From an uncultured Planctomycetaceae bacterium (GTDB lineage: Bacteria; Planctomycetota; Phycisphaerae; SM23-33): a stretch of 64,000 nt of DNA. Made by a program: the position numbers and the translations under genes. The notes under the pieces are model-generated. The model searched no databases. It saw nothing but the letters and a program-made list of their open reading frames with translations, and was not told the DNA's origin. Where the stretch lies: the NCBI GenBank assembly GCA_964557575.1, contig CAZLBC010000001.1, positions 2,296 to 66,295 of the forward strand, written 5' to 3'. This document shows positions 83-55,272 of the stretch, in pieces (position 1 is the first letter of the stretch; each line of letters begins with the position of its first letter).

Positions 83-128
83 GAGTTTTCTCGGGAAGTT
101 TACAAGGTTTTTCTCGGGAAGTTTACCT
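83..128. promoter_or_regulatory. promoter-like direct repeat, two units of UUUUCUCGGGAAGUUUAC
   Basis: Same about 22-bp unit as at 1713, 6363, 16549, 21539, 52766 and, inverted, 55247. Confidence 0.4.
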
Positions 129-656
129 GCCGGAGATTTCCTCGCGACGCCACTGGAAACGGCGGCCAAGCTCAACGAACATCTGGCTGACGCGGGACTC
201 GGTGAGTCCGATTTCGTGTCCGATTTCCTTCATCGTCGCGCCGCTCATCCGCATCTTGACCATGCCGTTCTCGACTCCGGGCAAAACGGTGTCCACCCAG
301 TCCTCGACCGCGACCCGGGAATAGCCGTCGTAGGGGGCCGGGCTGCAAACGCAATCGCGCGACCCGGACGGATTCAGGTCTTCGAGATAGACGTCGTTAT
401 CCTTTTTCCGGCGCGCCGAATCCTCTCGGCCGTGTTCCTTTCGCATATAATCGATCGCGCGCTGTTTGACGCGAACGTTGATGAACGTGTCGATGCTCAA
501 CCCGTCGTCCCTGTAATCTTTAAGTTCCCGCCATACGGACAACAGGACCTCGTTGATCAGGTCGTCCCACTCGTGTCGGGGGAGCTTGTTGGCGCAGAAC
601 ATCCGCGCGCATTTCTCGATGTAAGCGATGTTGGCGTTGAAGAGTTCGTCTTGCAT
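123..656 (-). CDS. RNA polymerase sigma factor (sigma-70/ECF-like)
   Basis: ORF 123..959 trimmed to ATG at residue 102 (GAGGACGAGGAC upstream). Has a C-terminal HTH resembling sigma region 4 (TMKEIGHEIGLTESRVSQM) and a region-2-like helix (LINEVLLSVWREL). Confidence 0.55.
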   Translation of the reverse strand: MQDELFNANIAYIEKCARMFCANKLPRHEWDDLINEVLLSVWRELKDYRDDGLSIDTFINVRVKQRAIDYMRKEHGREDSARRKKDNDVYLEDLNPSGSRDCVCSPAPYDGYSRVAVEDWVDTVLPGVENGMVKMRMSGATMKEIGHEIGLTESRVSQMFVELGRRFQWRREEISGR

Positions 657-862
657 GGGTTTGTCCTCGTCCTCGAATGTTCGCTCGGAGGGCGACGCGT
701 CCAAACGCCGCCCTTGGTTGGTTTTTCGGTCCGACTGAAATAGTATGCGCGGTCCTCGCGGGTTCAAGGAAAAAACTCCAGAGTTCTTTCCTTGTCGGTA
801 AAACCCCCGGGCACCGTGCCCGGGGGCTGTTGCGGGCGGGGACCAGCCGCCCTGCTGGAGGA

Positions 863-1657
863 TCACAGCTTCTCGGCCGTGGCCGCTTCGCGGTTCCAGA
901 TCACGGTATCCCACTCCGATACCCACGGTTCGTGAAGCGAATTGTAGATGTCGATGCAATCGTGCGCGTCGAATCCGCCCGCGACGGCGATCTCACCGAT
1001 CCGGTCGTACTCCATGGCGTCGCGGATCATGCGCCGAAGTTCTTTCTTCGTCCCGTTCCACAGGCCGCAGTCGTCGCCGCAGTGAAAACCGGGGATGACT
1101 TCGCCGTTGATGTTGTAGATCACGACGTTGCGGCCGCGACTGCGAAGAATCGGGAACTCCCGGGAAACGCAGCGTTGCGCGCGGATCGCTCCGTTGTTGT
1201 ACGCGGCGGAGACCTTCTCCTTGATCTCCCGCAGGGTCGGCAGGGAATCGTAAATCTCTCCGCTCGACCACTGGTGACCGTGGCGCAGCACGTTGCGCCC
1301 GAAGTACCGCGAGATCACTTCGCGGGGGCCGTCCTTGCCGGGCACCTTGGTGACCCGGTTGACAACGCCGGAGCGTTCCCGCGCCTTGTGGTCGGACACG
1401 CTGCGGCGGCCGTGCAGGAACGTGTACAGCGCGTCCTCAAACTGGTTGACGTCGCTGAAGTAATGATCCGTGATCCGGTCGCCGGAGTCGGACGCGCTGA
1501 ACGCGTACCGGGTGTCCCGGCCGAAACTCCAAATCTTAGCAACGCGCTGGAACGCGTCGGCTTCCTCGTTCGTCAGGTGAACGGGAACGGTCATCCGACC
1601 GCTCTTGAGTCCCTCGATCACCGCTCGGATTCCTTCGTAGGTTTTTGTCTCGATCAT
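863..1657 (-). CDS. hypothetical protein
   Basis: ORF 863..1822 trimmed to Met56, which is preceded by GGAGGAGACA. The 5' leader is conserved with genes at 16477 and 21463. Confidence 0.5.
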   Translation of the reverse strand: MIETKTYEGIRAVIEGLKSGRMTVPVHLTNEEADAFQRVAKIWSFGRDTRYAFSASDSGDRITDHYFSDVNQFEDALYTFLHGRRSVSDHKARERSGVVNRVTKVPGKDGPREVISRYFGRNVLRHGHQWSSGEIYDSLPTLREIKEKVSAAYNNGAIRAQRCVSREFPILRSRGRNVVIYNINGEVIPGFHCGDDCGLWNGTKKELRRMIRDAMEYDRIGEIAVAGGFDAHDCIDIYNSLHEPWVSEWDTVIWNREAATAEKL

Positions 1658-1712
1658 GGTTGTCTCCTCCAGTGTTGTGGTCTTCGATCCTGTCGTCCGG
1701 AAGTAAATGTAA

Positions 1713-1760
1713 AAGATTTGTCGGGGAGTTTCAAGAAAAATATCGGGGAGTTTTGAAAAT
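1713..1760. promoter_or_regulatory. promoter-like direct repeat (two units) upstream of gene 863..1657
   Basis: GATTTGTCGGGGAGTTTCAAG and AAAAATATCGGGGAGTTTTGAAAA, 60-100 nt upstream of the minus-strand start. Confidence 0.45.
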
Positions 1761-1923
1761 AAATGCTTGGCGGCCCCCGTGAAAACCCTTGTAACGAGAA
1801 GCGGGAGCATGGTAAAGTTCACATGTGACCACCCGCGTACTTGGCATCGAAGGTGAAAGCGCGGGGACCGGATTTGCGCCGTACCGGGGAATCATCTAAA
1901 CTGCGCCAAGGAGGTCAAGAGCG

Positions 1924-2430
1924 ATGCAACGCTACCCGGTCCCGACTGAAGACGACTTCGTCGTCGAACTGAACGCGGACAGAAAGCTTTTATGCGACGC
2001 GGACGTTCACCCCGTGCGCGATCAGGTGCAGTCCGTCATCGACGGCCGCCAGCCTCCGCTCGAATGGCTTACCCTGTACAACAGCGCGGACATCGTCGCG
2101 GCGTACCGACGGCTTCGCGACGCCGTGACGGTCTACCGTGAAACCAAGCGGAAGCTGGCGGGTTCCGGCTGTTGGGTCAGCGTGTCCAACGCGGCGACGG
2201 TGCGCACCACGCCGGTCGAAATCGCGCAACGCGTAACCGAATGCCGGTGGAACCTCGTCGCCGCCGTCGTCGAAGGGTTGTACGGCGACGCGAAGTACCG
2301 CGCCGCGTCGCTTTGGAACCTGCGGAAGACATTGCTGGTTCGCATGGCGCGCCGTCGGAAGATCAAACGGTACTCCCGCATGCGCAAGCACGAACTGGTG
2401 TACGCGCTGGTCGCCGACGGCTTCGGCTAG
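1924..2430 (+). CDS. hypothetical protein (Rho_N-like C-terminal segment)
   Basis: AAGGAGG lies 9 nt upstream of ATG. One of only three plus-strand genes; TAG stop, followed by a hairpin terminator. Confidence 0.6.
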   Translation: MQRYPVPTEDDFVVELNADRKLLCDADVHPVRDQVQSVIDGRQPPLEWLTLYNSADIVAAYRRLRDAVTVYRETKRKLAGSGCWVSVSNAATVRTTPVEIAQRVTECRWNLVAAVVEGLYGDAKYRAASLWNLRKTLLVRMARRRKIKRYSRMRKHELVYALVADGFG

Positions 2431-2460
2431 AAGGCGGACATCGAACGGTTCGAATAAGCG

Positions 2461-2493
2461 AAACCCCCGGTATTACCCGGGGGTTTCTTTTTT
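2461..2493. terminator. bidirectional rho-independent terminator
   Basis: AAACCCCCGG-TATTAC-CCGGGGGTTT followed by TCTTTTTT. Lies between convergent genes. Confidence 0.6.
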
Positions 2494-2526
2494 CCGCGCG
2501 TCACATGTGTCGGGGGGACTGAACGG

Positions 2527-5500
2527 TTAGTTCGCGCGGAGTTCCTGTTCCTCTTGGCAGTTCGGACCGGAGCAGAACAGCGGGTCTTCGCCGTCCGAAC
2601 CAACGTATTCGGACCAGTCAAGCGGACGGATCGCGGCGCGCCGACGGTTGTACTCCTCTTCCGTGATCCCTTCCTGCGGCGACTGCGCGTACACGCCCGC
2701 CGCCGTGTGCGGAAGAAGCGAAACCGATTTCGTAACGGGAGCCAGCGTGGACAACACGTCTTCGATCTGGTCCTCCTCGTGCATCGGGTTGAACCGGTAC
2801 AGTTTCATGCCGGTTGAGTCGCTTGTTATCCGTATGGCGGAATCCGCGTACTCCTCGCTTTCGGACAGCGTCCGCAGGATTCGCGGCGCGTCGTGCGGGT
2901 CGATGATCGGGTCGTGCAACCCGAACAAAAAGCCTTGGAGTTCATCAGAGTTCGGCAACGCTTCCGGCTTCCACGCCTTTGTCAGGACCCACTTCGGTTT
3001 GAAGAAGAGAGTATTTGACACCGCATTATCAGACCACTCCCTTTGCACGAACATGAGGTTCGCGGCCTGCTCCCACAGACTCGCCTCCGTCGCGGGCTTC
3101 GCCGGTCCTTGAAGAACCGGGAACTCGAAGACGAGCGTTTTCGGGTTGACCTTGTCCGGTTCGCAGGGAACCCCGGCGTCCTGCAAGACAGACACGACAG
3201 GGGCCGTCTCGGAGACGCGCACGCGCATCAGCGTGTGGCGGAACGTCGGGTACCCGATCCCGCTGGTCCGGCCAGCCAACTTGGGCGTGGTTCCTCCCGG
3301 TTTCACGGTCGTGACGCGGATGCTTTCCGGGATACCGGCTTCGGCCGCGAGATCGCGGTTGACTTCACGAATCAAGTTGTAACCGTCTCGGAGCCACCGG
3401 GTGACCTTGTTGATCGGATGCGCCGCCTTCCAACCGGTCAGGTCGACGAGACCGACCCCGATGCGCCGGTTCCGCGCGACGACGCGGTTCGTTTCAGGAG
3501 AGTGCGTCGGAAGCAGGTTGACGCTGCTGCAGTAGATCGCGGCGTACCGGCACGCGTTGAGCCAGTCTTCGACGGTATTGCACCGCGTCGGGAGCGTCTC
3601 GGCGATGTTGCACGTTTCGAACGATTCCAAGGGGACCTCGCCGCACTGTTTGGACGAAACCCACACTTCCTTGTCTCGGCCCCCGTCGGTCGTACCCGCG
3701 AAACCTCCGATGAAGAAGCGGTGTGTTTCGTCCACGGTTCCGTTGTACACGTCTTCGTACCCGTCGAACTCCACAGATATAACTTTGTGGTTATACCCGT
3801 CGGCGCGTTTCTCCAAGTCCTTCCACGACTGGAACGGCGAGGACTTCCGGCAGATTTCAGAGGATACCCCGGACGCCCTGCACGCTTCCACCCATTCCAT
3901 CTTCTTCGGTGTCCGCCCCAGTTCAAACGACAAGTCCAAGAAGACTGCGATCTGTTGTTCCCGGACGTTCTCCCGGCGCGCGTCAAACGTCTTCTTCCTC
4001 CCCTCACGGCGTTTCGCGATCAATCCCGGGTCGGAGTTCATCGCGGCCAGCGAGACTTCGTGAGAGGCGTACGCTTGCTCTCTTCGGTTGGACGGTACGA
4101 TAAACGTTTCTCCTGTCGCTTCACAGACCTTCGTGACCATGACGCGCCCGTCAACAATACCCGCTTCCAGCCCGGATTCCAACAGTTCGTGCAACAGCCG
4201 CACGGTACGGGGGTCGCAATCGGAGAAGTCTTCGACTCCCGCCTTCGCGGCGCACCGCTTGGCGAACGCCGTAATCGTTCCAAGTTCAGCCTTCCGGAAT
4301 TTCGAGAACGACGTCGGAAGATCGCGAGTGACGGCGTACTCCTGCCATTCTTGCTTCGAAAACCTGCGACCGAGATGCCCGGCGAGGTTCACCCCGTGTT
4401 CTAAGAGCGCATCGTTAGTCACGCCGCAGTATCGGGAATTGCTCTCTCCGTCCGAGTGCTCAGACAGATGCGGGAACTCCGATCGGATTTCGAGGTTTTC
4501 AGTCCGGTTATCCGTTTTGCGGCCGTTTATGTGATGAACATGAAGTCCCTGCCGGGGTTCGATCCCGAAGTGCGCCTGCGCGATCAGCCTGTGTTCAGCG
4601 CGCGTTTCGCCGCCAATTGAGAACGTATTGTACTGATCGGCTCTCGATTCACTGCGTCCGTCCGGGAAGTACCGGCTCAAAATACGGAGGGAGTCCCCGC
4701 ACGAGAGTTCTTCGACGGCCTTGGTTTCCTGTCCGCCGCGCAGGTACAACTTGTGGTTCCCCGTCAAGCGCAGGATGTCGCCGCTGTCCAGCACGACCTT
4801 GTACACCGCGACTTTCTTGCCCGTCGCCCGGGGACGGCGCATCCAGTGGATGCCCAACGATCCGTCCAACAACTCGGTGAAGACCCGGACGTCCTGTCCG
4901 GATTCCGCGAGTTCCCGTATCGGGACGGCTCCCCGTCCGTCCGCCGTCAAAACCAGCGTATCTCCAGTCATACACGGGTTCAACCCGGTCGCCTTGTCTT
5001 CCCGCACGTTCGACGCTTTTCCGACGCGCAGGCGGCCGCGCTTCACGTTGACCATGTTCAGGTACCCCGGCTCGCCGTTCTTGATCACGCGTTCGGCGAT
5101 CTCTCCGAGCTTGGCGAAGTCCTCGGGGGTTTCGAGAATCACGCTGTTGTTCGACATCCATCCGATTTCGGCGCGATCCGGATGCTTTTCGTAGTCCTTC
5201 AAATCGGCGAACGTCGGATCGCTGACCGGGGCCAACGAAATTTCTGCGCTACGCCGGACATTTCCGGCGACAACGCAGCATCCGATCGCGTTGAAGATGT
5301 CGACCTTCAACCGCATGGAATCGTATTCGTGTTCGGGGTCGAGAATTTCCGATCCGGGGTTGATGTTGTTGCGCCATTCGCGGTATTTGCGGAAGTACGT
5401 TCGGATTCTCTCGTGCAGTTCCTTGAGCGGGCCGGGACCGGAAGCGCGTCCGCCGAATCCCCGGATCGGCGATCCCTCCGGACGGATTTCAGAGTAGTCG

Positions 5501-6159: not shown

Positions 6160-6362
6160 GGGCGGGCCTCCAAACGGTTGATGTTGCGCACAATCCTGTT
6201 TTATACATCGCCCGGATTGCGGTGTCCACACTCAATACATCGGGCAGGGAGGGCTAATCCGAACATAAACTTTTCGGGATTTTACAAAAAACATCACAAG
6301 TCGCTGGTTCCGTCCGGATTTTCAAACGAACTTGGAAACCCGGACGGACCCTGAAAAAATTT

Positions 6363-6414
6363 CAAGTTTTTTCGAGCCGGGACCGACACAAATTTTTCTT
6401 CGGGGAATTACAAA
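6363..6414. promoter_or_regulatory. promoter-like repeat units in nrdJ / peptidase divergent region
   Basis: TTTTTCGAGCCGGGACCGACAC and AATTTTTCTTCGGGGAATTACAAA. Confidence 0.4.
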
Positions 6415-6486
6415 TTTTTTCTTTGATAGTTTAACGAACCGGGGGTAAACTTGGCAAATGGAAGATTTCCAACTGGAGGAACGACC

Positions 6487-7347
6487 ATGGAAGACATCCG
6501 AAATACGCTGCGAAACCTAGCCGAGGCCGCTGATCGCGGGGATTTCATCCGATCCCTTCTGACGGAACGCGGCGTGCCTTTCCGCGACCAGCGGTTCCCC
6601 TGTCACGGGAAAACGAACATCCTCGTCGACTTCGGCCATCCCCCCGAATCGTGGCGGCACGTGTACGGCGCGCACTACGACGCGGTGTCCGGCTCTCCGG
6701 GAGCCAACGACAACGGCGCGGCGTGCTTGTCCTTGGTGCATCTCGCGGCGCGCGTTCACTCAGCGGGAGAAACGCCGCCCCTGTGCATCGTGTTCTTCGA
6801 CGGCGAAGAGCCGGAGAACCGGTACGACGACACCGGCGCGTACTGTCCCGGGTCGTACTTGTTCGCCGACGAGCTGATGATTTGCGCCGGGCAGCCGGAA
6901 CTCGCCGTCGTACTGGACGTGACCGGCTTCGGCGACACGCTGCTCTGGGACGGCGCGGGCGGCGAAGAAACGCCGATGACCGAGGCGGTGCGCCGCGTGG
7001 TCCCGGACGTCATCGGCGAATGGACTCCAACGTCGGACGAGCGGTTGATGGCGAACGCCGGAATGTACGCGATCCTGTTGACGGTGATCCCGTCCGAGGA
7101 AATCGCCGGAACCCGGACGACGTGGGAAACGCTGCACTCCATGGAAGACAACGCGGACACCGTGGACCCGGATAACATCCCGTGGGTATCGGAAATCCTG
7201 TGGTGCCTTTCCCGTCCGCTGTCAGGGCTTCCCGCTCCGCTGGCGGAGTCCAAGGCCCCTTCCAACGTAAACGCGCGTGAGAACGCGCTGGACGCGCTCT
7301 ACGCCGGTGCCCCTGACTTTGACGACGTTGAATCCTCCGAGGACTGA
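6487..7347 (+). CDS. M28-family zinc peptidase-like protein
   Basis: GGAGGA lies 6 nt upstream of ATG. HYDAV and GANDNGAA motifs are typical of M28 metallopeptidases. Confidence 0.45.
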   Translation: MEDIRNTLRNLAEAADRGDFIRSLLTERGVPFRDQRFPCHGKTNILVDFGHPPESWRHVYGAHYDAVSGSPGANDNGAACLSLVHLAARVHSAGETPPLCIVFFDGEEPENRYDDTGAYCPGSYLFADELMICAGQPELAVVLDVTGFGDTLLWDGAGGEETPMTEAVRRVVPDVIGEWTPTSDERLMANAGMYAILLTVIPSEEIAGTRTTWETLHSMEDNADTVDPDNIPWVSEILWCLSRPLSGLPAPLAESKAPSNVNARENALDALYAGAPDFDDVESSED

Positions 7348-13615: not shown

Positions 13616-16477
13616 CTAAAATGGGGCGACCGCAAGTTCCGATTCCGGCAGACGGGACAGGTCGTAAATGTTTGCCTTTTCCGCTTTCTTCGGCTTCGCG
13701 TCGGCGTGATCGCCGAGGTCGACCGGAGCTTCCGCCTTCCGGGAGTTCAACGCGGCGTCGATGTTGCGCGCCTTCTTCGCGATCGTCTCGGCGATGTACG
13801 CGTCCAGCGATTCGTCGACAACGATGTAGTAGCTGTTGACGCATTGCGTTTGCCCGATCCGATTGGCGCGGTCCTCGGCCTGATCGACATCGCCCGGCCG
13901 CCACGGCAGTTCGGCGAAAACGACCGACGTCGCTTCGGTCAGCGTGATTCCTTCCCGGCAGGCTTGGATCGATCCGACGAAGACGCGGATGCCGTCGTCG
14001 TTCTGGAAGCGGTCGATCGACTCCTGCTTGGCCGCGTCGTCCATGCCGCCCTGCACCTGCACGACGCCGTATTCGGAAAGCGCGGCGGCGACTTGGTCCT
14101 GCACGTCGCGGTGATGCGCGAAAACGATTACTTTCTTGTTGCCGGACAGGACCTGATCGGCGAACTCGGCCGCGTGCTTGATCTTCAGCGATCCGATTTC
14201 CGCGCGAAGTTTGCTCATTTCTTCGAACAGGGCCGGGCTTCCCCGCAATTCGGAGATCGCTTCTTCGGCGTTGCCTTCGTTGATGTCTTCGAGCGAAATC
14301 CCGGCGTCCGACAACAGCTTGCGCTGCCGGGCTAGAATCCGCGACGCGCCCTTGACGTCCGACGGGTCCAACCGGACGACAGTGCGAATCTTGCCGGGGA
14401 GTTCCGTCAGGACTTCGGACTTCATCCGGCGCAGCATGAACTTCGAACGCATGATGCGCTGCAATTCATCGAGATTCGTCGCGCCGTCGTCCACCCAGCC
14501 CCAGCGGCCTTGATGCGCGCCGCAGTAACGGCGGGTGTACTTCTTGTAACCGCGACCAAGGCCCTTGGGATCGAGGTGGCGCAGCATCGCGTACAATTCC
14601 TTCGGACGGTTCGGGCAGGGGGTTCCGGTCAGGAAGTAGTTGCGGTTCGCCCGGTGCGCGACGCCTTCGACCTCGCGCCTCTTGCCGGAATCCCAGTAGC
14701 CGAACGCGATTTTCGCGCGGGTGGCCGTCCGGGTGTTCTTTCCGTAGTGGGCTTCGTCCCACACGGCGACGTCCCACGAGTAGTTCATCAGCCCGGGGCG
14801 GACGTTCTTCTGCGACAGGTTCGACCATCCGCAGATAACGAAATTCGCACGGGGGTCAATCGTCTTGTTGCCGTTGACGACTTGGATGGTCCAATCGCCG
14901 ACGAGCCACTTCTCGGCTTCCCGCTTCCAGTTCAGCCGCACGCTGGGCGGACAAACGACCAGCACTTTGCGGACGGACTTGTCGGCGTTGACCGCGCCGA
15001 GGACCTGAATGGTGTTGTGTGTCAGGATCGCGTGTTCCGTAACGTACAATCGGTCGGCGGCGTCAACGGAAATACAAACGCTTTCCACGTCGCGGACGTA
15101 CTCGACAGACTTAACCGTGCGGACGGGGTGCGCGTGTTTTCCGGGGTTGTACTTAGAAACCTTGCGACGGATAGTAAAGGGAGCTATCGTTTTTGGCAGG
15201 CGAATACGCACGGGGTACTCCGTGGGTTTCCCCTCGGAAGATCGATCGTATTCGTGTACAGACGCGATGCCGCCCAAACACTCCACCAGTTCTTGAACAT
15301 CGCAGGCGAGCGACCGGCTCGTCGTGTGATACGTCAGCCGGTTCCGTTCGGCACTGCAGCCGCCATCGCAGTCCATGAGTCCCTGCAACAGAGCGATACG
15401 CTGCGCCGGGGAGGATTCAAGGTACTGACGTGGTATGCGTTTGTCCTTGCTTCCGACGTCCAACCCGAGTTCCCTGATGCTTCTGATCGTTTCAAGAATA
15501 ACCGTGCGCGACGCGTTATCATACGTTTGGATCGCCCCGATTTCCGCCCCTGCCTTGACGATGTTTTCAACTATCTCGTCCAAGTCGGCGGCGTTCACCG
15601 TCGCCACTGCGCTGCTGCCCCTGAGACCCCCGTTCGCTATCAGTACGCCGAGCACGTACGCGGGCACGGGCAGTTCGGCGGCAGCACCAAACCGGGCAGG
15701 TCCAGATAGCATAGGCAACTGCAGCTTCACACCTTCCAAGTTCAGCTTCGTCGCTCTACCCTTCTCGTGCGATAACTCGATAGTCGGCCGATCCAGAAGC
15801 TGCTGGGTAGTTAGCGTCAGGTCGCTCAAGGTTCGCCCCCCGCGCCAGTATTTGACAGTCCACAGGTGCTCTGGACCGGACTCTACGCGGGACTCGTCAC
15901 TGAAGGTAACACGGTAACTTGGCTTCACACCCTGCGGGAACACGCCGACGACGTTCACGGGATGTCCGTCGCTGCCAATGACACGATCGCCCACACGCAG
16001 TGAGCCTATCGTCGTCCACCCGGTCGGTGTCAGCACGTGTGTGTCCACAGGTTGCTGCTTTCCGAGGCCCATGTCGTCGGCCAACAGGACGTCGCTGCTG
16101 TTGACGAGGTACTCAATGCCCGCCTTCTGAAACGGCATGTAAGCGAGTCCCTCGGGGGCCGGGGCGTCGAAGTCGCCGGTCGTGGCGCGGGAGCCGTTGA
16201 TGCGGTCGAGGATCGGCTGCACGAGAGCTTTGACGGCGTCGTCGCAGTAGTCGATCAGCGGCACGCACTTGTCCGCTTGTTTCGCCCGGCAGAACCACGT
16301 GCAAGGGGTGCCGGTTTCAGAGCCGGACTTGTCGAACGCGAACCCGACGCCGCCGCGCTTCCTTGAAAGGGCCGAGACGTCGTTCCAGTACGCGTCGCGT
16401 TCGGCCGGGCTTCCCCGGAAGGCTCCGGACAGTTCCGCGACGATCAGGTTCTTGTCTTTGCTCAGGGTCAGTTTCAT
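13616..16477 (-). CDS. SNF2-family helicase, intein-containing
   Basis: GGAGGACACC RBS. The P-loop LLADDMGLGK-[349 aa]-TIQVLGAV reconstitutes DEMGLGKT. C-terminal helicase motifs are present (DEAHYGKN, LTGTPCPN). Confidence 0.8.
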   Translation of the reverse strand: MKLTLSKDKNLIVAELSGAFRGSPAERDAYWNDVSALSRKRGGVGFAFDKSGSETGTPCTWFCRAKQADKCVPLIDYCDDAVKALVQPILDRINGSRATTGDFDAPAPEGLAYMPFQKAGIEYLVNSSDVLLADDMGLGKQQPVDTHVLTPTGWTTIGSLRVGDRVIGSDGHPVNVVGVFPQGVKPSYRVTFSDESRVESGPEHLWTVKYWRGGRTLSDLTLTTQQLLDRPTIELSHEKGRATKLNLEGVKLQLPMLSGPARFGAAAELPVPAYVLGVLIANGGLRGSSAVATVNAADLDEIVENIVKAGAEIGAIQTYDNASRTVILETIRSIRELGLDVGSKDKRIPRQYLESSPAQRIALLQGLMDCDGGCSAERNRLTYHTTSRSLACDVQELVECLGGIASVHEYDRSSEGKPTEYPVRIRLPKTIAPFTIRRKVSKYNPGKHAHPVRTVKSVEYVRDVESVCISVDAADRLYVTEHAILTHNTIQVLGAVNADKSVRKVLVVCPPSVRLNWKREAEKWLVGDWTIQVVNGNKTIDPRANFVICGWSNLSQKNVRPGLMNYSWDVAVWDEAHYGKNTRTATRAKIAFGYWDSGKRREVEGVAHRANRNYFLTGTPCPNRPKELYAMLRHLDPKGLGRGYKKYTRRYCGAHQGRWGWVDDGATNLDELQRIMRSKFMLRRMKSEVLTELPGKIRTVVRLDPSDVKGASRILARQRKLLSDAGISLEDINEGNAEEAISELRGSPALFEEMSKLRAEIGSLKIKHAAEFADQVLSGNKKVIVFAHHRDVQDQVAAALSEYGVVQVQGGMDDAAKQESIDRFQNDDGIRVFVGSIQACREGITLTEATSVVFAELPWRPGDVDQAEDRANRIGQTQCVNSYYIVVDESLDAYIAETIAKKARNIDAALNSRKAEAPVDLGDHADAKPKKAEKANIYDLSRLPESELAVAPF
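15011..16057 (-). mobile_element. class-3-type intein with LAGLIDADG homing endonuclease in SNF2 P-loop
   Basis: Starts QQPVDTHVLTPTG (Gln at position 1, block A DT). Trp in block B (EHLW), Cys in block F (ESVCISVD) and Thr in block G (ILTHN|T) give the WCT signature. LAGLIDADG motifs YVLGVLIANGG and LLQGLMDCDGG. Confidence 0.7.
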
Positions 16478-16548
16478 GGTGTCCTCCAGTGTTGTGGTCT
16501 TCGGTCCTCGACTCCACCGGAAATCTTATCGTGACCCGGGTTCATGTT

Positions 16549-16596
16549 CAAGAAAAATATCGGGGAGTTTACAAATTTTTTCTCGGAGAAATACAA
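16549..16596. promoter_or_regulatory. promoter-like direct repeat (two units) upstream of SNF2 gene
   Basis: GAAAAATATCGGGGAGTTTACAAA and TTTTTTCTCGGAGAAATACAAA. Confidence 0.45.
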
Positions 16597-16619
16597 ACCC
16601 CGGGGATTCACGCCCCGGG
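16597..16619 (-). terminator. hairpin CCCCGGGG-ATTCACG-CCCCGGGG
   Basis: Followed by only UUUGUAUUU on the minus strand, so it is a weak terminator candidate. Confidence 0.3.
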
Positions 16620-20758: not shown

Positions 20759-21463
20759 TCATACCCGTCGAGCACACTCCGGGCCGATTCCCCGCTGCAC
20801 GCTTTCGGGATCGGTCAAGTCCCGGCCGCACCGCAGGCAACGCCCGAGGTGGAACACCCTGTAGCCGTCCGGCAGTTCGCCGTCATGCGCCTGCATGCGG
20901 TCGATCGCCCACAACAGAACCTGAATGCTCTTCGGAACGTCCGGGGCGTCCGCGTCTTTTTTCATGTGGCAGACCGTGTTCCAGTCCAGCCAATTAACCC
21001 ACTGTCCGTGCCACTTGCCCTTGACACGGATTGACTTTCGGGTGCTGCGGAGACCGTTGTTCTCCCACAGGCCGAGACTGGCGTAGGCGTACCGGTTGTC
21101 CGCGTTGCCGCCATGCCCTTCCTTCAACACGCCGACGAATACCGGCAGGTCGACTTCGTCCGGAGAGGTGAGGTCGGCGGTGTCTTCGTGCGAACGCAAA
21201 CCGACTTCGATACCGTACGCGCACGCGTCGGACCACAGTTCCCGCGCGTCCAGCGTTCGAGGGGCCGTCTTGGTTTTCTCGCGAATTATTTCGAGGTCCG
21301 CGTCCCGCTTCGCTTCGTCCTTGTACAGGATTTTAACGAATCGCGGCGACGCAATACGGTAGGTGAAATGCTCGCCCGTCTTGCTCTGAACGGTGAAGAT
21401 CGCCTGTCCGGCGAAAAGCAAACGGGGGTCGGTGATGGTTCCGGTTTGTTCGGTCATGGTCAT
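20759..21463 (-). CDS. hypothetical protein (C-terminal CxxC cluster)
   Basis: Trimmed to Met25 behind GGAGGA. Conserved leader and promoter-like repeats lie upstream. Confidence 0.5.
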   Translation of the reverse strand: MTMTEQTGTITDPRLLFAGQAIFTVQSKTGEHFTYRIASPRFVKILYKDEAKRDADLEIIREKTKTAPRTLDARELWSDACAYGIEVGLRSHEDTADLTSPDEVDLPVFVGVLKEGHGGNADNRYAYASLGLWENNGLRSTRKSIRVKGKWHGQWVNWLDWNTVCHMKKDADAPDVPKSIQVLLWAIDRMQAHDGELPDGYRVFHLGRCLRCGRDLTDPESVQRGIGPECARRV

Positions 21464-21538
21464 TGCTTGTCCTCCAGTTCCGGTTTGTTCGGTCCTCGAC
21501 TCCACCGGACAGTCTACAGGAGAGGCAAACGGCATGCA

Positions 21539-21585
21539 AGAAAAACATCGGGAAGTTTACAAATTTTTTATCGGGGAGTTACCCG
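21539..21585. promoter_or_regulatory. promoter-like direct repeat (two units) upstream of gene 20759..21463
   Basis: AAAAACATCGGGAAGTTTACAAA and TTTTTTATCGGGGAGTTACCC. Confidence 0.45.
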
Positions 21586-21971
21586 CGCCACGGACGGGCT
21601 TCCAAGGGCGGCTTGTCGTCGGCCTTCCCGCGCTCCGAGTGCCACTGCTCGCGTTCCCGGGCCTCGGACTGTTCGTCTTCCGACGGGGATTCGAGTTCCG
21701 TCACCGGGGAGTTCTGAATCGCGGGAACCGTCACGTTCATGATTCGCGCCTTGTCCTCCGCCACGGCAAACGCGACAAACGCCAGTTCAATGCACCGCTG
21801 CCGAAGGTCTCCCTCGCCGGTCGTCAGCGTTTTGATAACCGCCTCGGACTTGGAAACGAGGTGATCCCCCTTTTGAAGCGGCGGGATTTGCTTCCAATAA
21901 TTCCACGCGTGCGCCGCGCTGGCGTCGCACTGTTCGAAAAAACGCCGGAGCTTTTCGTGCATTTCGTTCAT
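21579..21971 (-). CDS. hypothetical protein
   Basis: ATGA overlap with the upstream gene. Confidence 0.5.
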   Translation of the reverse strand: MNEMHEKLRRFFEQCDASAAHAWNYWKQIPPLQKGDHLVSKSEAVIKTLTTGEGDLRQRCIELAFVAFAVAEDKARIMNVTVPAIQNSPVTELESPSEDEQSEAREREQWHSERGKADDKPPLEARPWRG

Positions 21972-50030: not shown

Positions 50031-50036
50031 GTCGGT

Positions 50037-50481: not shown

Positions 50482-50484
50482 AGA

Positions 50485-50520: not shown

Positions 50521-50554
50521 TGCGCCTTTCGTCTTTTCGACCAGTACCTCCTGC

Positions 50555-50591: not shown

Positions 50592-50597
50592 TAAAAG

Positions 50598-50943: not shown

Positions 50944-51101
50944 GACCTCGGACGCCTTGCGCTCCCTCTTCGACGAAGGACACCTTGGCAGGTCTGCGCC
51001 TTGCCGGTGCCGGGATCGCCGGGGTATTTAGGCCACCGGCCCGTCAGAGTCCCCGACGCAACCCGCGTCGCGAAGTACGAGCCTGTCGTACAGGACCCTG
51101 A

Positions 51102-51126
51102 CGGGCCGAACGGGATTCGAACCCGC
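51102..51126 (-). other. tRNA 3'-half-like fragment
   Basis: GCGGG-UUCGAAU-CCCGU-UCGGCCC-G with no 5' partner. The next tRNA starts 27 nt away. Confidence 0.35.
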
Positions 51127-51152
51127 ATCTTCCGAGCTTCTCTAAAATCAAA

Positions 51153-51227
51153 TGGGACGGGTGGGATTCGAACCCACGGTTTCCTGATTAAAAGTCAGGT
51201 GCATTAGGCCAACTATGCTACCGACCC
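51153..51227 (-). tRNA. tRNA-Lys (anticodon UUU)
   Basis: Stem CCUGA/UCAGG with loop CUUUUAA. D-stem GCAU/AUGC. Confidence 0.6.
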
Positions 51228-51426
51228 GTGTACTTTTTCCACCGAACAACCTCCGTCCACTTGTTTTTCGCCGATGGAGGCTCGACTTCCATAATCTGTT
51301 TCGCACTGCATTCCACACAGTATCGAAATTCAGCCCATCGCTGCCATTTATGAAATCCAATCGAGCAACGAAGAGGACGTTTCAAAAATCCCAGCATCGC
51401 CAAACGCCTCGAAAAAACAGTAAGAG

Positions 51427-51499
51427 CTGCTCCGGCAGGGTTCGAACCTGCAATCTTCTGATTCAGAGTCAGACGCGTTTCCATTTACGCCACGGAGCA
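51427..51499 (-). tRNA. tRNA-Gln (anticodon CUG)
   Basis: U1:A72 as in tRNA-Gln. Stem UCUGA/UCAGA with loop CUCUGAA. Confidence 0.65.
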
Positions 51500-51501
51500 G
51501 A

Positions 51502-51577
51502 TGGTCCTGCCGGAAGGAATCGAACCTTCTAATACCACCTTATCAGAGTGGCCTCTGTACCATTCGAGTTCGACAGG
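51502..51577 (-). tRNA. tRNA-Ile (anticodon GAU)
   Basis: Loop CUGAUAA. CCA encoded. Confidence 0.6.
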
Positions 51578-51582
51578 AAAAA

Positions 51583-51656
51583 TACGTCCGGCGGGATTCG
51601 AACCCGCGACCTTCGGTTTAGGAAACCGATGCTCTATCCGATTGAGCCACGGACGC
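51583..51656 (-). tRNA. tRNA-Arg (anticodon CCU)
   Basis: D-arm GCUC-AAUCGGAUA-GAGC. Loop UUCCUAA. Confidence 0.65.
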
Positions 51657-51657
51657 G

Positions 51658-51891
51658 TCACGATCCGCCGTAGACGGGATTGTACGGCGACGTCGCAGAA
51701 GCATTCATTTCATACACGCTCACGCCGGTCGCGTCCGTCACGACGGTCTCTTCGGTGACGATGGACACGTCGGCGTAATACTGCGAAAGCAGAGAAGTCA
51801 TCTCGGCGGCGACGCCGGTCAAGACGACTTTCTTCTCGGCTCCGGGAAGCGTTGAATCCGGGATGGTAACGACGATTTTGAATCCGGCCAT
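51658..51891 (-). CDS. hypothetical protein
   Basis: GGAGGAG RBS. Abuts tRNA-Arg(CCU). Confidence 0.5.
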   Translation of the reverse strand: MAGFKIVVTIPDSTLPGAEKKVVLTGVAAEMTSLLSQYYADVSIVTEETVVTDATGVSVYEMNASATSPYNPVYGGS

Positions 51892-51924
51892 GACGGTCTC
51901 CTCCGTTGTTTCAACCGAGGCGGA

Positions 51925-52749
51925 TTATAACACGAGCCGGAAACCGTCGCCAACAGACAGGGTGGACACGTACGACATGGCCTTCTCGCGCGCTTCCAAC
52001 AGGCGGACGAACTCTTTTTGAGAGCCGCCCTTGTCGGGGTGCGCGACCTTGGCTTTCTCGCGGAAGTTGCGCATGACGACGCGCTTCGCCGCTTCCATGT
52101 CGTCCGGGAGTTCCACGCGGCTGACGTCGAGGACGTCCCACCACCATTCCGACGGAGGCTTGACAGGTTCCGGTTCCCTCGCGGGATCAGGTTCCGACCG
52201 AGCCGATCCGAGTTTCGGAATGAAGTGGATTACGCTCAACGACTTGTCGGAGTCCGGGTAGCCGAACATGGTCAACGTCGTCTTGAACGTCAACCCGTGG
52301 TGCGCCGCGACGACAAGCGGTTCAATCGCCTGTTCGCGGACTCCGGGATTCGTCCGAAGCTGGACGTACTCCCTGACCTCGGCGAGCGTCGGCTTGTCCG
52401 CCTTCGACTTCAAAAAGACGTCCGCCGCGTGGTAAATCTCCCACGGGGTGGACAGCCAGCTTCCGACTGTTTCCTCCCCGTCACCATCCGGTCTTTGCGG
52501 GAACTCGCCCTGCGGAAAATGCACGTACTCGGCGGTGTACCAAGGTTCGCGTTCGTACACGCCCATTCGGCTCAATTTCATCTCCGGCTTCACGTTATAC
52601 GCGACGACGGGCATCCCCGTGGCGGTGCGTCCCTTAAACACGGTTCGAGTTCCCATGAAGTCCGTCTTCTCGTACGTGTAAACGTAGACGGGGCGCGGTC
52701 TAGGCGGTTCTCGCGTGTAGTCGGTGAACAGGATAAGAAGCTCGTTCAT
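51925..52749 (-). CDS. J-domain (DnaJ-like) protein
   Basis: C-terminal ...KVAHPDKGGSQKEFVRLLEAREKA with an HPD motif. A promoter-like motif lies upstream. Confidence 0.55.
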   Translation of the reverse strand: MNELLILFTDYTREPPRPRPVYVYTYEKTDFMGTRTVFKGRTATGMPVVAYNVKPEMKLSRMGVYEREPWYTAEYVHFPQGEFPQRPDGDGEETVGSWLSTPWEIYHAADVFLKSKADKPTLAEVREYVQLRTNPGVREQAIEPLVVAAHHGLTFKTTLTMFGYPDSDKSLSVIHFIPKLGSARSEPDPAREPEPVKPPSEWWWDVLDVSRVELPDDMEAAKRVVMRNFREKAKVAHPDKGGSQKEFVRLLEAREKAMSYVSTLSVGDGFRLVL

Positions 52750-52765
52750 GGATCAAGAAATAACT

Positions 52766-52785
52766 CGGGAAGTTTCGTGCGTCAA
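52766..52785. promoter_or_regulatory. single promoter-like unit upstream of J-domain gene
   Basis: AACTCGGGAAGTTTCGTGC. Confidence 0.3.
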
Positions 52786-52797
52786 ATGAAAAATAGA

Positions 52798-52872
52798 TGG
52801 TACTCCCGGCAGGAGTCGAACCTGCATCTCGACATTCGGAGTGTCGCGCCTTGTCCGTTGGGCCACGGGAGT
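52798..52872 (-). tRNA. tRNA-Arg (anticodon CCG)
   Basis: Stem CGACA/UGUCG with loop CUCCGAA. CCA encoded. Confidence 0.6.
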
Positions 52873-52877
52873 AAAAA

Positions 52878-52954
52878 TGGCATCCGGCGAGGGACTCGAA
52901 CCCCCAATCGCGACATTCGTAGTGTCGTGCCTTATCCAGTTAGGCCAGCCGGAT
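52878..52954 (-). tRNA. tRNA-Arg (anticodon ACG)
   Basis: D-arm GCCU-AACUGGAUA-AGGC. Loop CUACGAA. Confidence 0.6.
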
Positions 52955-52995
52955 GCATTCGCGGAACGTTATCGGTTGTCAAAGAGCATTCAAAA

Positions 52996-53068
52996 TTACC
53001 CCGGCAGGGTTCGAACCTGCAACCTTCTGATTCAAAGTCAGAAACGCTTCCAGTTGCGCCACGGGGTA
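52996..53068 (-). tRNA. tRNA-Gln (anticodon UUG)
   Basis: U1:A72. Stem UCUGA/UCAGA with loop CUUUGAA. Confidence 0.65.
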
Positions 53069-53076
53069 CCGAATAT

Positions 53077-53152
53077 TGGAGGCCCCAGCCGGAGTCGAAC
53101 CGAGCGATAAACGATTTTGCAAACCGTCCCCTTGCCGCTTGGGTATGGAGCC
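53077..53152 (-). tRNA. tRNA-Cys (anticodon GCA)
   Basis: Loop UUGCAAA. U73 discriminator and CCA. Confidence 0.6.
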
Positions 53153-53158
53153 ATGGAG

Positions 53159-53232
53159 GGTGACCGACGAGGTTCGAACTCGTACTCTTCTGACTCACAA
53201 TCAGGTATGTTGCCAATTACACTACGGTCACC
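53159..53232 (-). tRNA. tRNA-His (anticodon GUG)
   Basis: Extra G-1 pairing with C73. Loop UUGUGAG. Confidence 0.65.
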
Positions 53233-53243
53233 GTCGAATGCTA

Positions 53244-53333
53244 TGGTGCGGGATGAAGGAATTGAACCTTGTCGGCAGCCACCACGATGTTTTGCGCCAG
53301 AGACTTTACAGGCCCCCTCGTGGAACATCCCGC
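53244..53333 (-). tRNA. tRNA-Tyr-like (anticodon GUA), atypical 90-nt structure
   Basis: Perfect acceptor GCGGGAU/AUCCCGC-A-CCA and a T-loop UUCAAUU. Loop CUGUAAA in a GGGGC/GUCUC stem, but no room for a normal D-arm. CCACGA/UCGUGG pairing encloses the anticodon arm. Confidence 0.35.
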
Positions 53334-53349
53334 ACTTGGTTTTCAAAGA

Positions 53350-54291
53350 TCAAGCCTGCGACAGTTTCAGCCAGATCGCGACCATGATTTCGTCGACGAC
53401 TTCGTCAACGGTGCGATCCTTGGTTTCAACAACGCAGTCGGCTTCCGCCGGTTCTTCGTACGGATCGTCGATCCCGGTGAATCCCTTGATCTCACCGGCG
53501 CGGGCTTTCGCGTACAAGCCCTTGACGTCCCGCGCTTCGCACTCTTCGAGACTGGTGGCGACGTGGACCATGAAGAACCGCTTGTCGCCGATCAGGTCTC
53601 TCGCGGACTGCCGGGCTTCCGCATACGGCGAGATCGCCGCCGTGATCGCGATTCCTCCGACGTCGGCGACCGACTTCGCCACGAAGGAAAGCCTTCGAAT
53701 GTTTTCGTCCCGGTCCTCTTTCGAGAATCCGAGTCCCCGGTTCAAGTTCGTCCGGACCTCGTCGCCGTCCAGAACCTTCACCCGGTGTCCGAGTTCGTTC
53801 AACCGGCTTTCAAGAGCCACAGCGATAGTGCTCTTGCCAGAACCTGACAGCCCGGTAAACCAGATGACAAGGCCATTGCCTGCGTCACCACCGGTTGCGA
53901 GGACTTCCGCCGTCGCCATTGGAACCTTTTCCCGCCACGACTCGTCGCCTTCCGCCATGAGCGTTCGGACTTGGGTCGCCGAGATTCCGCCGATCTCCGG
54001 CGGCACGACGTCCTGTAAGTCACGAACTTCATAGCCGACCTTTCGTCCGACGACCACCGCCGCGATGTCCGGGATGGCCATGACGCGAACACAACCGGTT
54101 TTGATTTCGTCGGAGTACACGGCGCGGATCATCGCGATCCGCTCTCCCAGCGTGTACGGGTCTCCGTCGTTGACCGGCGTGTCCCGCACGGCGATCAAGA
54201 CGTTCTCGTCGCGATCCAGAGCTTGCTGGATCAGCCATTTGTGGCCATTGTGGAACGGCTGCCACCGGCCGATGTAAAGCGCGTACTTCAT
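53350..54291 (-). CDS. cysC: bifunctional HxGH-nucleotidyltransferase-like / adenylylsulfate (APS) kinase
   Basis: N-terminal [12 protein letters not shown] ((H/T)xGH nucleotidyltransferase). C-terminal [13 protein letters not shown]...LDGDEVR...AISPY matches the APS kinase core. GAAGGGAG RBS. Confidence 0.75.
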
Positions 54292-54356
54292 TCGTAAACT
54301 CCCTTCAAAAAAATTTGCGCTGAAGAGAGGATAGCAACGCCGCGCTTTTCATTCAA

Positions 54357-54433
54357 TGGTGCTCCGGGTGAGAGTCGAACTCACACTGTACAGTGTCTGA
54401 AACTGCTCCCTCTGCCAATTGGGGTACCGGAGC
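54357..54433 (-). tRNA. tRNA with Leu anticodon CAG, class I architecture
   Basis: Same D-arm and T-arm family as 49957..50030. Stem GCAGU/ACUGU with loop UUCAGAC. A73 and CCA. Confidence 0.5.
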
Positions 54434-54438
54434 GTAGA

Positions 54439-54512
54439 TGTCCACGGTGAGAGTCGAACTCACACTTTCATGATCCTTAGTCATGTCCCTCTGCCAATTG
54501 GGGTACGTGGAC
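54439..54512 (-). tRNA. tRNA with Leu anticodon AAG, class I architecture
   Basis: Stem CAUGA/UCAUG with loop CUAAGGA. A73. Confidence 0.5.
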
Positions 54513-54518
54513 GAATTT

Positions 54519-54594
54519 TGGCTCTCCGGGGTGGACTCGAACCACCAACCTACTGCTTAACAGGCAGTCGCTGCTACCATTGAGCTACCGGAGA
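54519..54594 (-). tRNA. tRNA-Asn (anticodon GUU)
   Basis: Stem ACUGC/GCAGU with loop CUGUUAA. CCA encoded. Confidence 0.6.
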
Positions 54595-54601
54595 ACGTAA
54601 A

Positions 54602-54674
54602 TGGACCGGAGGGGAATCGAACCCCTGACCTTCTACTTGCAAAACAGATGCTCTACCGATTGAGCTACCAGCCC
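54602..54674 (-). tRNA. tRNA-Ala (anticodon UGC)
   Basis: G3:U70 wobble pair. Loop UUUGCAA. Confidence 0.65.
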
Positions 54675-54766
54675 GTGAACGCCGTCGGAAAAGGTTGCCG
54701 GGCGTTATTTGATTGTGCATCATTCACATTGATGTGCGTTTACCAGTTACGCCAACCCGCCGTCAA

Positions 54767-54793
54767 GGTGGCGGGTGAAGGATTCGAACCTCC
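54767..54793 (-). other. tRNA 3'-half-like element in a hairpin
   Basis: GGAGG-UUCGAAU-CCUUC-ACCCGCC-A-CC. The acceptor-like strand pairs with a downstream GGCGGGU instead of a 5' tRNA half. Confidence 0.3.
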
Positions 54794-54838
54794 ATTACTG
54801 AAACGTCTGGACAGGTTCCGACGGCGAATATTGCGTCA

Positions 54839-54910
54839 ACGAGTGCCGGATTCGAACCCAAAACCAACCACCCTCGTACACGCGGGTTCGTCGCGCTAGG
54901 ACTCGTTGAC
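54839..54910 (-). pseudogene. degenerate tRNA-like sequence
   Basis: Perfect 7-bp acceptor AACGAGU/ACUCGUU and UUCGAAU loop, but a poor T-stem and no D-arm. Confidence 0.3.
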
Positions 54911-54936
54911 TTGATTTTCAAAGATCGAAAAATTTA

Positions 54937-55011
54937 TGGTGGCTCCCCGCCGAGTCGAACGGCGACTTCCGCGTTTTCAGCGCGGCGTACACTCCAGTAT
55001 ACGAGAGAGCC
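54937..55011 (-). tRNA. tRNA-Phe (anticodon GAA)
   Basis: Stem CCGCG/CGCGG with loop CUGAAAA. CCA encoded. Confidence 0.6.
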
Positions 55012-55013
55012 AA

Positions 55014-55050
55014 TTAAAAAACCCCTGTCCGGAGGGCCGAACAGGGGTTT
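55014..55050. terminator. rho-independent terminator (strong on minus strand)
   Basis: CCCCTGT-CCGGAGGGCCGA-ACAGGGG flanked by an A-run and a T-run. Precedes tRNA-Phe on the minus strand. Confidence 0.55.
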
Positions 55051-55246
55051 CGTGTGTGCAACCGGTGTTCAGCCCTACGTGGTGCCCTCCAAATTGAAGG
55101 CATAAATCGCCGCGCACGACAGGAGGTTTCTGTCGTTGTGGCGATGTATCTGTTGGCTGAATCGTTTGGTGAACATCATCATGTTTCCGTTCGCGCCTTT
55201 CGGCGTTCCGTTCGTATCACGATGGAAATGTACAAGGGTCGACGCG

Positions 55247-55272
55247 CGGCGTCAAGAAACTTCCCAATATTT
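55247..55272. promoter_or_regulatory. same unit in inverted orientation within palindrome CAAGAAA...TTTCTTG
   Basis: CAAGAAACTTCCCAATATTTTTCTTG. Confidence 0.3.

Follow-up and report, generated by a model that had tools for sequence, protein, structure and literature searches.

A stretch of 64,000 nucleotides from contig CAZLBC010000001.1 of an uncultured Planctomycetaceae bacterium (assembly GCA_964557575.1, positions 2,296 to 66,295; hereafter the window) belongs to a large phage-like genome, in which a short unit with the core AAACTYCCCGA recurs in front of a set of genes. We propose, with moderate confidence, that these repeats form the upstream part of a promoter cassette which the phage uses again and again, and that they provide a site for a sequence-specific protein, ahead of a sigma-70-type promoter and a shared leader. 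The first-pass annotation of this DNA was right in kind, since it described the repeats as promoter-associated and factor-binding and saw a common untranslated region behind them, and wrong in taking the unit for the promoter itself and a phage sigma factor for its reader.

A repeated intergenic unit

On the minus strand, which carries nearly every gene, the unit reads TTTGT-AAACTYCCCGA and is followed by an A/T-rich 8-mer. It is asymmetric, and tandem copies stand as direct repeats 22-23 bp apart. The exact core is found seven times in the window against 0.10 expected, a number that none of 100 shuffles reaches, and all seven copies are intergenic and on the minus strand (114-124, 91-101, 1743-1753, 1721-1731, 16560-16570, 21548-21558 and 52765-52775). 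Two further cores carry one mismatch, one at 21571-21581 and the other, on the opposite strand, at 55257-55267, and one extra exact core lies at 18733 of L020, a contig that extends the sequence by 9.1 kb beyond window position 1. Degenerate distal copies occur at 16583-16593 and upstream of the L020 18733 copy, and an extension of 3.5 kb beyond position 64000 (L039) holds no further copies. In a position weight matrix (PWM) scan of the 73 kb formed by the window and L020, ten copies score 19-29 bits, all intergenic, and the next best match (11.8 bits) falls into the background, random sequence giving about 10 matches of at least 9 bits. The separation in the PWM scan is partly circular because the matrix was trained on the same copies, but the exact-core statistic is not. 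Literature searches on the 11-mer core and on the SRA run returned only unrelated primer matches.

The unit stands in register with a sigma-70-type promoter

The complete cassettes of the window, and the further one in L020, are as follows.

6..129, minus strand: cassette P1, directly behind the sigma stop codon; cores 114-124 and 91-101 (AAACTTCCCGA twice, 23 bp apart), -35 TTGTAA (77-82), -10 TATTTT (54-59), leader with GGAACGAA and ACTGGAGGA (17-25), ATG 6-8; the gene runs past the window end.
1655..1758, minus strand: cassette P2, serving a 264-aa open reading frame (ORF, 863-1657); cores 1743-1753 (about -54..-44) and 1721-1731 (overlapping the -35 and the spacer), -35 TTGAAA (1729-1734), -10 TACATT (1706-1711), leader 1658-1700 with GGATCGAA and ACTGGAGGA (1665-1673).
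16475..16598, minus strand: cassette P4, serving the intein-containing SNF2 helicase (13616-16477); core 16560-16570, degenerate distal TATTTCTCCGA (16583-16593), -35 TTGAAC (16546-16551), -10 TAAGAT (16523-16528), leader 16478-16520.
21461..21586, minus strand: cassette P5, serving a DUF6011 protein (20759-21463); cores 21548-21558 and 21571-21581, -35 TTGCAT (21534-21539), -10 TAGACT (21511-21516), leader 21464-21510.
L020 18733: cassette upstream of a 220-aa ORF; -35 TTGACG, -10 TATATT, 10/12 matches to consensus.

The promoter-proximal copies share one fixed register, in which the 11-nt core is followed by the A/T-rich 8-mer, by TTGNNN, by 17 nt and by TANNNT. The 8-mer is TATTTTTC in three cases (inverted copy included) and otherwise TGTTTTTC, GTTATTTC, TAAATTTA or GAAAACTC. 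TTG begins exactly 8 nt past the core in all proximal copies (TTGTAA, TTGAAA, TTGAAC, TTGCAT, TTGATC and TTGACG), and TANNNT follows at exactly 17 nt from the -35 in five of six, the exception being the copy at 52766. At a fixed offset and with background base frequencies, the chance of TTG is p ~0.013 and that of TANNNT p ~0.009, so their co-occurrence is far beyond chance. The predicted core promoter is thus of the sigma-70 type and the unit is not itself the promoter, as the first-pass annotation had it: each proximal unit sits a fixed 8 nt upstream of a TTGNNN that has its TANNNT 17 nt further on. What survives of the earlier idea of a phage-specific promoter or activator-site family is the association with promoters, the common leader and, as the part that fits this anatomy best, the activator site.

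In our sigma-70 scoring the cassette promoters are among the best intergenic candidates, and a strict 9/12 promoter scan of 1-2000 and 16300-21800 passes P2 alone. Of the 12 consensus positions the core promoters match 7-10, and four of the six only 7-9. If transcription starts about 7 nt past the -10, as we infer, the unit would form a 16-nt element centred near -51.5, with the second copy near -74. On this scale the A/T-rich 8-mer falls at about -43..-36 and the G/C-rich conserved core at -54..-44, the latter unlike UP elements. The promoters of the sigma gene and of a Mor-like gene are sigma-70-like and have no unit; since these and other intergenic sigma-70-like promoters lack it, the unit appears to mark a promoter subset or regulon.

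A shared leader

The leaders at 1663-1704, 16480-16521 and 21468-21509 are 74-83% alike (family D12). The first-pass annotation was correct that three genes share a leader, and "near-identical" overstated the case, the leader at 1658-1700 being 74% alike. Each runs in the same order, with CCGG at 2-9 nt after the -10, then GGAYCGAA, and then ACTGGAGGA-N4-7-ATG; GGAYCGAA and ACTGGAGGA are also present in the leaders at 9-53 and L020 18733. The ACTGGAGGA block occurs eight times in the window against 0.27 expected, and in the window plus L020 five of its six gene-strand copies lie in cassette leaders, the leader of an M28 peptidase gene adding one on the other strand. A structured RNA was considered for the leader and rejected: Rfam gave no match on the leaders, their folding is nothing unusual (z -0.26 to +0.89), and a 5' hairpin is present in the L020 18733 leader only. 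The leaders look like a sequence-level context for translation initiation, not a riboswitch-like element.

Conservation in a relative

The sole motif-bearing relative that we found is L021, a 4-kb Logan contig (run SRR10018917) with a sigma factor 60% identical to that of the window. After its sigma stop codon L021 reads AAACTCCCCGA-GAAAAAAT-TTGT-AAACTCTCCGA-TAAAAAAC-TTGTAA-17 nt-TATTTT, followed by the same leader. The L021 cassette (1085-1203) is 87% identical to P1, compared with 66% for the sigma coding sequence, and its -35/-10 spacer agrees at 8 of 17 positions. Within the window, P4 and P5 have units and leader in common and agree at 1 of 17 spacer positions by eye. Such block-wise conservation with diverged spacers points to selection that preserves the units, -35, -10 and leader, and speaks against a neutral duplication of recent date. 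About 4 codons past the cassette, L021 and the window phage cease to be homologous; some 500 nt further on they align again, at 86-93% amino acid identity. In L021 an unrelated 149-aa ORF replaces the N-terminal part of the P1-driven gene. In this one case, which recalls the module exchange mediated by PeSLs in T4-type phages (PMC2839356), the cassette may act as a recombination joint.

Partial and inverted members

Beside the complete cassettes, three regions hold incomplete, inverted or degenerate members.

52751..52780, minus strand: a single unit, core 52765-52775, 8 nt, TTGATC (52751-52756), just downstream of tRNA-Arg.
55227..55278: an inverted unit, core AAACTTCCCAA on the plus strand (55257-55267), in a palindrome (55253-55278).
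6271..6489: divergent control region between the genes for ribonucleotide reductase (RNR) and the M28 peptidase; degenerate units only.

At 52766, TANNNT is missing from the 17-nt position and the would-be spacer takes in the annotated ATG (52749); this site is probably an incomplete member of the family. The inverted core at 55257 does lie within a palindrome, CAAGAAA…TTTCTTG, as was first noticed. It stands 1 nt upstream of a minus-strand sigma-70-type promoter, TTGACG (55250-55255)-17-TACATT (55227-55232), that faces a tRNA-Phe/Ala/Asn/Leu cluster, and on the plus strand it has no usable -10 downstream.

The degenerate units of the RNR/M28 region are TAATTCCCCGA at 6400-6410 on the minus strand, a weak one at 6367-6391, and TTTGTAAAATCCCGA at 6271-6288 on the minus strand (PWM 11.4 bits). 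The copy listed at 6363 in the first-pass annotation scores at background level and has no -10 at the expected minus-strand place. Of the earlier list, then, the repeat itself is real and strongly non-random, less this background-level copy and with 52766 incomplete; the distance of 55-100 nt to a gene start likewise fails for these two, 52766 being only 17 nt from ATG 52749 and 6363 some 240 nt away from where RNR starts (6159). A promoter, TTGATA-17-TAAACT (6423-6451), and the family leader ACTGGAGGAACGACC-ATG (6472-6489) precede the M28 peptidase gene (6487-7347, plus strand); relative to this promoter the degenerate core at 6400-6410 is inverted, and 12 nt separate it from the -35 downstream. 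Two divergent sigma-70-like promoters overlap at 6423-6457, TTGATA-17-TAAACT on the plus strand and TTGCCA-18-TAAACT on the minus strand towards RNR, each -35 covering the other's -10. In addition, a long hairpin is seen at about 6310-6350 in the RNR leader.

Some further features touch single cassettes. The P2 region also holds the promoter TTGTAA-18-TAAAGT (1789-1818) of a divergent plus-strand gene (1924-2430). A terminator-like hairpin, CCCCGGGG…CCCCGGGG, lies just upstream of P4 near 16598-16620, and the distal core of P5, TAACTCCCCGA (21571-21581), overlaps the stop codon of the upstream gene. The P1-driven gene (window 8; L020 10935-11865) begins MAATLDVIDK… and stays open for about 120 codons before going out of frame near L020 11290, and a 192-aa ORF in another frame continues it in L020; a frameshift, a split gene or an error of assembly might explain the break.

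A proposed mechanism and the points against it

In the proposed mechanism, a host-type (sigma-70-like) RNA polymerase would read TTGNNN-17 nt-TANNNT, and the A/T-rich 8-mer at about -43..-36 would work as a proximal UP-like subsite, where the C-terminal domain of the alpha subunit (alpha-CTD) could sit. The 16-nt element TTTGTAAACTYCCCGA near -51.5, usually with its second copy two helical turns further up (~-74), would bind a phage-encoded or possibly a host protein, whose most likely role is to activate or time the promoters, themselves of moderate strength. The genes so driven would be DNA-metabolism or middle genes, namely the SNF2 helicase, the DUF6011 protein, the gene after sigma, the 264-aa ORF and the 220-aa ORF of L020, and probably also the tRNA cluster and the M28 peptidase. 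Transcripts would begin near the conserved CCGG and carry a leader of about 30-50 nt (about 40 nt in four window cassettes, reckoned from the -10), in which the GGAYCGAA and ACTGGAGGA-N4-7-AUG blocks would give a strong ribosome-binding context and not a folded RNA. The sequence itself shows the anatomy, the statistics and the conservation in one relative, and from it the start sites, the binding of a protein and the direction of regulation are inferred.

Several features favour a bound protein of this kind. A specific protein is implied because the G/C-rich invariant CCCGA is unlike an alpha-CTD UP element. The geometry is activator-like because core promoters of 7-10/12 are combined with units placed upstream in helical phase (22-23 bp), in a constant 8-nt register to the -35 and beside an A/T tract. 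Finally, inverted copies (55257 and 6400) at 1 and 12 nt from a -35 suggest a bound factor rather than an element read by sigma. Activator-dependent sigma-70 promoters include class I CRP promoters, the AraC I1-I2 sites (direct repeats of about 21 bp), Fis and the UP element at rrnB P1, Mu Mor at Pm, and P2 Ogr. The cassettes resemble these in having sites that directly precede the -35 at a constant distance and recur after about two helical turns, an A/T tract, and a sub-consensus core promoter. They differ in that the unit is not a dyad, whereas the Mor/C, Ogr and CRP sites are, that all -35s keep TTG, and that some units are inverted or lie over the core promoter. T4 middle promoters, in which a MotA box replaces the -35, offer a second likeness, for there too a phage-specific motif upstream of or at the -35 region marks a temporal class of DNA-metabolism promoters used by the host polymerase; the window promoters, in contrast, retain a TTGNNN -35 with the motif upstream of it. 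Among the window proteins scanned, none appeared homologous to MotA or AsiA.

Several observations weigh against this explanation. The core at 1721-1731 lies within the P2 -35 and spacer and the core at 55257 abuts a -35, places that are commoner for repression, and room should be left for repression at these two promoters. Every -35 has TTG, so the promoters may need no activator. The core holds CCGATA-like bases that recall the sigma-28 -10 element. Conservation rests on a single orthologous promoter in one 4-kb relative, and the contigs with the closest SNF2 homologues (45-51% identity; L024-L028) carry promoters of the sigma-70 type and lack the motif. Moreover, each candidate binder is weak or ambiguous: the Rho_N-domain protein at 1924-2430, divergent to the P2 gene; the weakly Mor-like protein at 40922-41476; and the multi-helix-turn-helix protein at 39174-40241. 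For the second, a Mor-like assignment has E = 9e-6 in PHROG, but in Pfam only E = 1.4e-3 (below cutoff), and there is no PDB sequence match, which leaves the assignment made in the first-pass annotation a weak one. The third, on the minus strand, is 355 aa long and has four or more tandem helix-turn-helix motifs (~residues 5-53, 121-154, 190-220, 234-261); it lies just upstream of a 1237-aa protein and the portal gene. It could bind DNA at several sites or may, given this place beside packaging genes, be a small terminase instead.

Other readings of the unit

If the bound factor were a repressor, the units would be operators by which host-polymerase promoters are silenced at the switch to later transcription, a reading that we consider unlikely. 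The placement of the P2 and tRNA-promoter cores speaks for it, as does the TTG -35 throughout, several promoters being near consensus (TTGACG-17-TATATT at L020 18733, with 10/12) and able, perhaps, to fire unaided. Most units, however, lie from -44 upstream, helically phased and at a constant distance, where they would not occlude polymerase, and the four core promoters with only 7-9/12 also fit an operator poorly.

About as unlikely is the view that no dedicated protein is involved, and that the unit and its A/T tract form an UP-like or curved element for host RNA polymerase in a strong early-promoter cassette copied and spread by recombination. The parallel would be PeSLs (promoter-early stem-loop), the regulatory cassettes of the T4-type phages RB49 and phi1 (PMC2839356; PMC4122927), which are repeated sigma-70-like promoters, AT-rich upstream and conserved over about 100 bp (PMC2839356). 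In both systems there are many conserved intergenic cassettes of ~100 bp, with a sigma-70-like promoter and an A/T-rich stretch upstream of the -35, placed before early or non-structural genes. PeSLs have recombination joints between promoter and downstream gene start, and here the one break, in L021, is ~4 codons past the cassette, at its edge; A/T tracts lie beside every core, and the core promoter is of the sigma-70 type. Against a reading by polymerase alone stand the invariant CYCCCGA, which is G/C-rich and unlike UP elements; the retention of the unit while the spacer diverges (1/17 between P4 and P5, 8/17 between the window and L021); and the presence of inverted copies. The stem-loop that defines PeSLs is missing from most cassettes, which have no consistent GGGG…CCCC stem-loop or terminator, only P4 having the upstream CCCCGGGG hairpin. 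Upstream, the window cassettes have one or two copies of the direct repeat AAACTYCCCGA, which contains G/C, and not merely A/T-rich DNA; they include a common leader and Shine-Dalgarno block, and the lineage is unrelated, at 58% GC.

A third possibility, less likely again, is that the unit is a non-canonical, single-block promoter read by the phage sigma factor, with the host sigma-70 promoter in tandem downstream. The factor and a second family of sites that bears on it are as follows.

123..656, minus strand: phage sigma-70-family factor, 177 aa, with regions 2 and 4; outside any cassette.
7850-7862, 16873-16886, 17548-17561, 18708-18721, 47350-47363 and 58885-58899, minus strand, intergenic: sigma-28-like family nCCGATA(A/T/C)-N1-3-CGGGT(A/G).

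The sigma factor matches TIGR02937 at 46.6 bits (cutoff 42.9) and FliA/WhiG weakly, and its region 2 is recognised by Pfam. Its own gene has a plain promoter, TTGAAC-16-TACTAT with the -35 at 762-767, without the unit. In the leader of the sigma gene (~686-724, minus strand), a stretch of about 40 nt, AAAACCAACCAAGGGCGGCGTTTGGACGCGTCGCCCTCC, with the hairpin GGGCGGCG/CGTCGCCC, recurs almost unchanged in L021 (483-522), compared with just 66% identity for the sigma coding sequence. This stretch may be an RNA element that regulates the expression of sigma. The sigma-28-like pattern has seven matches in the window against 0.33 expected, often preceded at ~16 nt by a TAAAG-like element and followed at ~20 nt by AGGAGG-ATG, and these sites are probably the targets of the phage sigma. 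Looser copies lie near 50355 and 23019.

A promoter of the sigma-28 (FliA/WhiG) class has the form TAAA-N15-GCCGATAA. In the unit, TAAAC…CCCGAKA resembles the sigma-28 elements TAAAGTTT and GCCGATAA, the core holding CCGA(T/G)A and the preceding TAAAC(T)T recalling TAAAGTTT, and this, together with the weak FliA/WhiG similarity of the phage sigma, favours its reading the unit. So do the tandem units right after the sigma gene in both the window and L021, and the middle-type DNA-metabolism targets. However, no workable sigma-28 or extracytoplasmic function (ECF) -35/-10 geometry emerges. The -35-like and -10-like parts are contiguous, 0-1 nt apart and not ~15; single and distal copies have no TAAA at 15 nt, and tandem copies have it at 14 nt, as against 16-17 in the phage's own GCCGATAA family. 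The T after CCCGA is not conserved (G in five copies), and units occur in both orientations (55257 and 6400 being inverted), so that 55257 would fire antisense with no gene downstream. The exact downstream TTG-N20-TANNNT would be left unexplained, and a better sigma-28-like family exists elsewhere in the window. The sigma factor, one of two proteins named in the first-pass annotation for a binding test, is thus not the best candidate reader. For an ECF promoter, GTAAAC is present, but 16-17 nt on there is only a variable TTGNNN and no conserved CGT. By eye, against textbook consensus sequences, ECF, sigma-28, sigma-32, NtcA, CRP and LexA-like readings of the unit were all rejected on spacing or symmetry; a Mor/C or Ogr-type site was rejected as well, the unit being a direct repeat and not a dyad, and the Mor-like protein being below the Pfam cutoff.

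A variant to which we give slightly less weight still is that the unit is a docking site for the small sigma-28- or ECF-like phage sigma, with regions 4 and 2 touching the fused TAAAC/CCCGAKA in a non-canonical geometry, or free sigma doing so. If true, such sites, one to two helical turns upstream of host-type promoters, would allow the same DNA-metabolism genes to be handed from host sigma-70 to the phage-sigma holoenzyme, or sigma to be titrated, and sigma would recognise DNA in a way not described before. Finally, that the repeats are non-transcriptional (iterons, partition or packaging sites, intergenic by chance) is very improbable: their 22-23 bp periodicity is iteron-like and unrelated low-GC IMG/VR phage contigs carry CAAACTTCCCGAA arrays, but the copies come in ones and twos over >60 kb, unclustered and in fixed register with -35/-10 and gene starts, and no Rep or DNA-binding protein common to the window and the array contigs was found, so replication iterons were rejected.

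The unit in other contigs

Scans of IMG/VR, JGI metagenomes and GTDB genomes for the tandem motif or the full module gave chance or unrelated matches only. In IMG/VR, the tandem-motif scan gave six loci (L001-L006), all in unrelated low-GC phages with CAAACTTCCCGAA arrays. These arrays (e.g. IMGVR_UViG_3300045988_157242; L002; L005) repeat the 11-mer of the window, as CAAACTTCCCGAA or GAAACTCCCCGATATATCACGCTT units, with a spacing of 21-24 bp. The low-GC array contigs have no candidate binder in common with the window, and the sole protein shared is a distant SNF2 helicase, in L002. The IMG/VR scan with the leader 16-mer gave 13 loci, counted by pattern match alone, and that with the full module gave 10 matches, about the chance estimate, none of them window-like in composition or with a second copy. 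A tandem-pattern scan of JGI metagenomes gave two chance matches in low-GC bacterial contigs, and a scan of GTDB genome contigs gave 0 matches. In L024, a 107-kb JGI contig whose SNF2 helicase is 51% identical, a repeated AAAAGTTTA-TTGACT-17-TAnnnT stands before the DUF6011 and SNF2 genes (promoter context at 9230-9260 and 9940-9975). As judged from these sequences, the core promoter type is common to L024 and the window phage, and the upstream element is lineage-specific.

The phage genome

The phage genome is uncultivated and about 198 kb long, and the window, at ~58% GC, holds 23 tRNA genes (47494-63991), one with a CUA anticodon. Other features of the window are the following.

59444-59516, minus strand: tRNA with CUA anticodon (amber suppressor; ARAGORN label Pyl).
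57853-58315, minus strand: phage-borne tmRNA.
2527-6159, minus strand: class II RNR with an intein and an HNH homing endonuclease.
13616-16477, minus strand: SNF2 helicase, its intein with a LAGLIDADG homing endonuclease.
35459-39172, minus strand: the 1237-aa protein, with two intein signatures, adjoining the portal gene.

Proteins of the window matched only one NCBI contig (198,081 bp) and Logan contigs of run SRR7048227, and several of them match only themselves among 5.8 billion clusters. An INPHARED megablast of 20 kb from the window gave no match. Among known phages, tblastn gave nothing for the sigma and, for the DUF6011 protein, a match through its domain only; an IMG/VR search with sigma peptides also found nothing.

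Implications

The cassette is an ordinary, PeSL-like form of phage gene control and does not challenge current ideas, since large phages routinely carry repeated promoter cassettes and sites for upstream activators. Its value is that it maps one transcriptional class in an uncultivated and poorly sampled phage lineage. The window suggests at least three promoter classes, namely plain sigma-70-type promoters, sigma-70-type promoters with AAACTYCCCGA units and the leader, and sigma-28-like promoters of the GCCGATAA type, and such a set suggests a temporal cascade. The units would furnish short DNA baits for the regulator, and the cassette as a whole may serve as a compact, portable part that combines a promoter with a ribosome-binding site.

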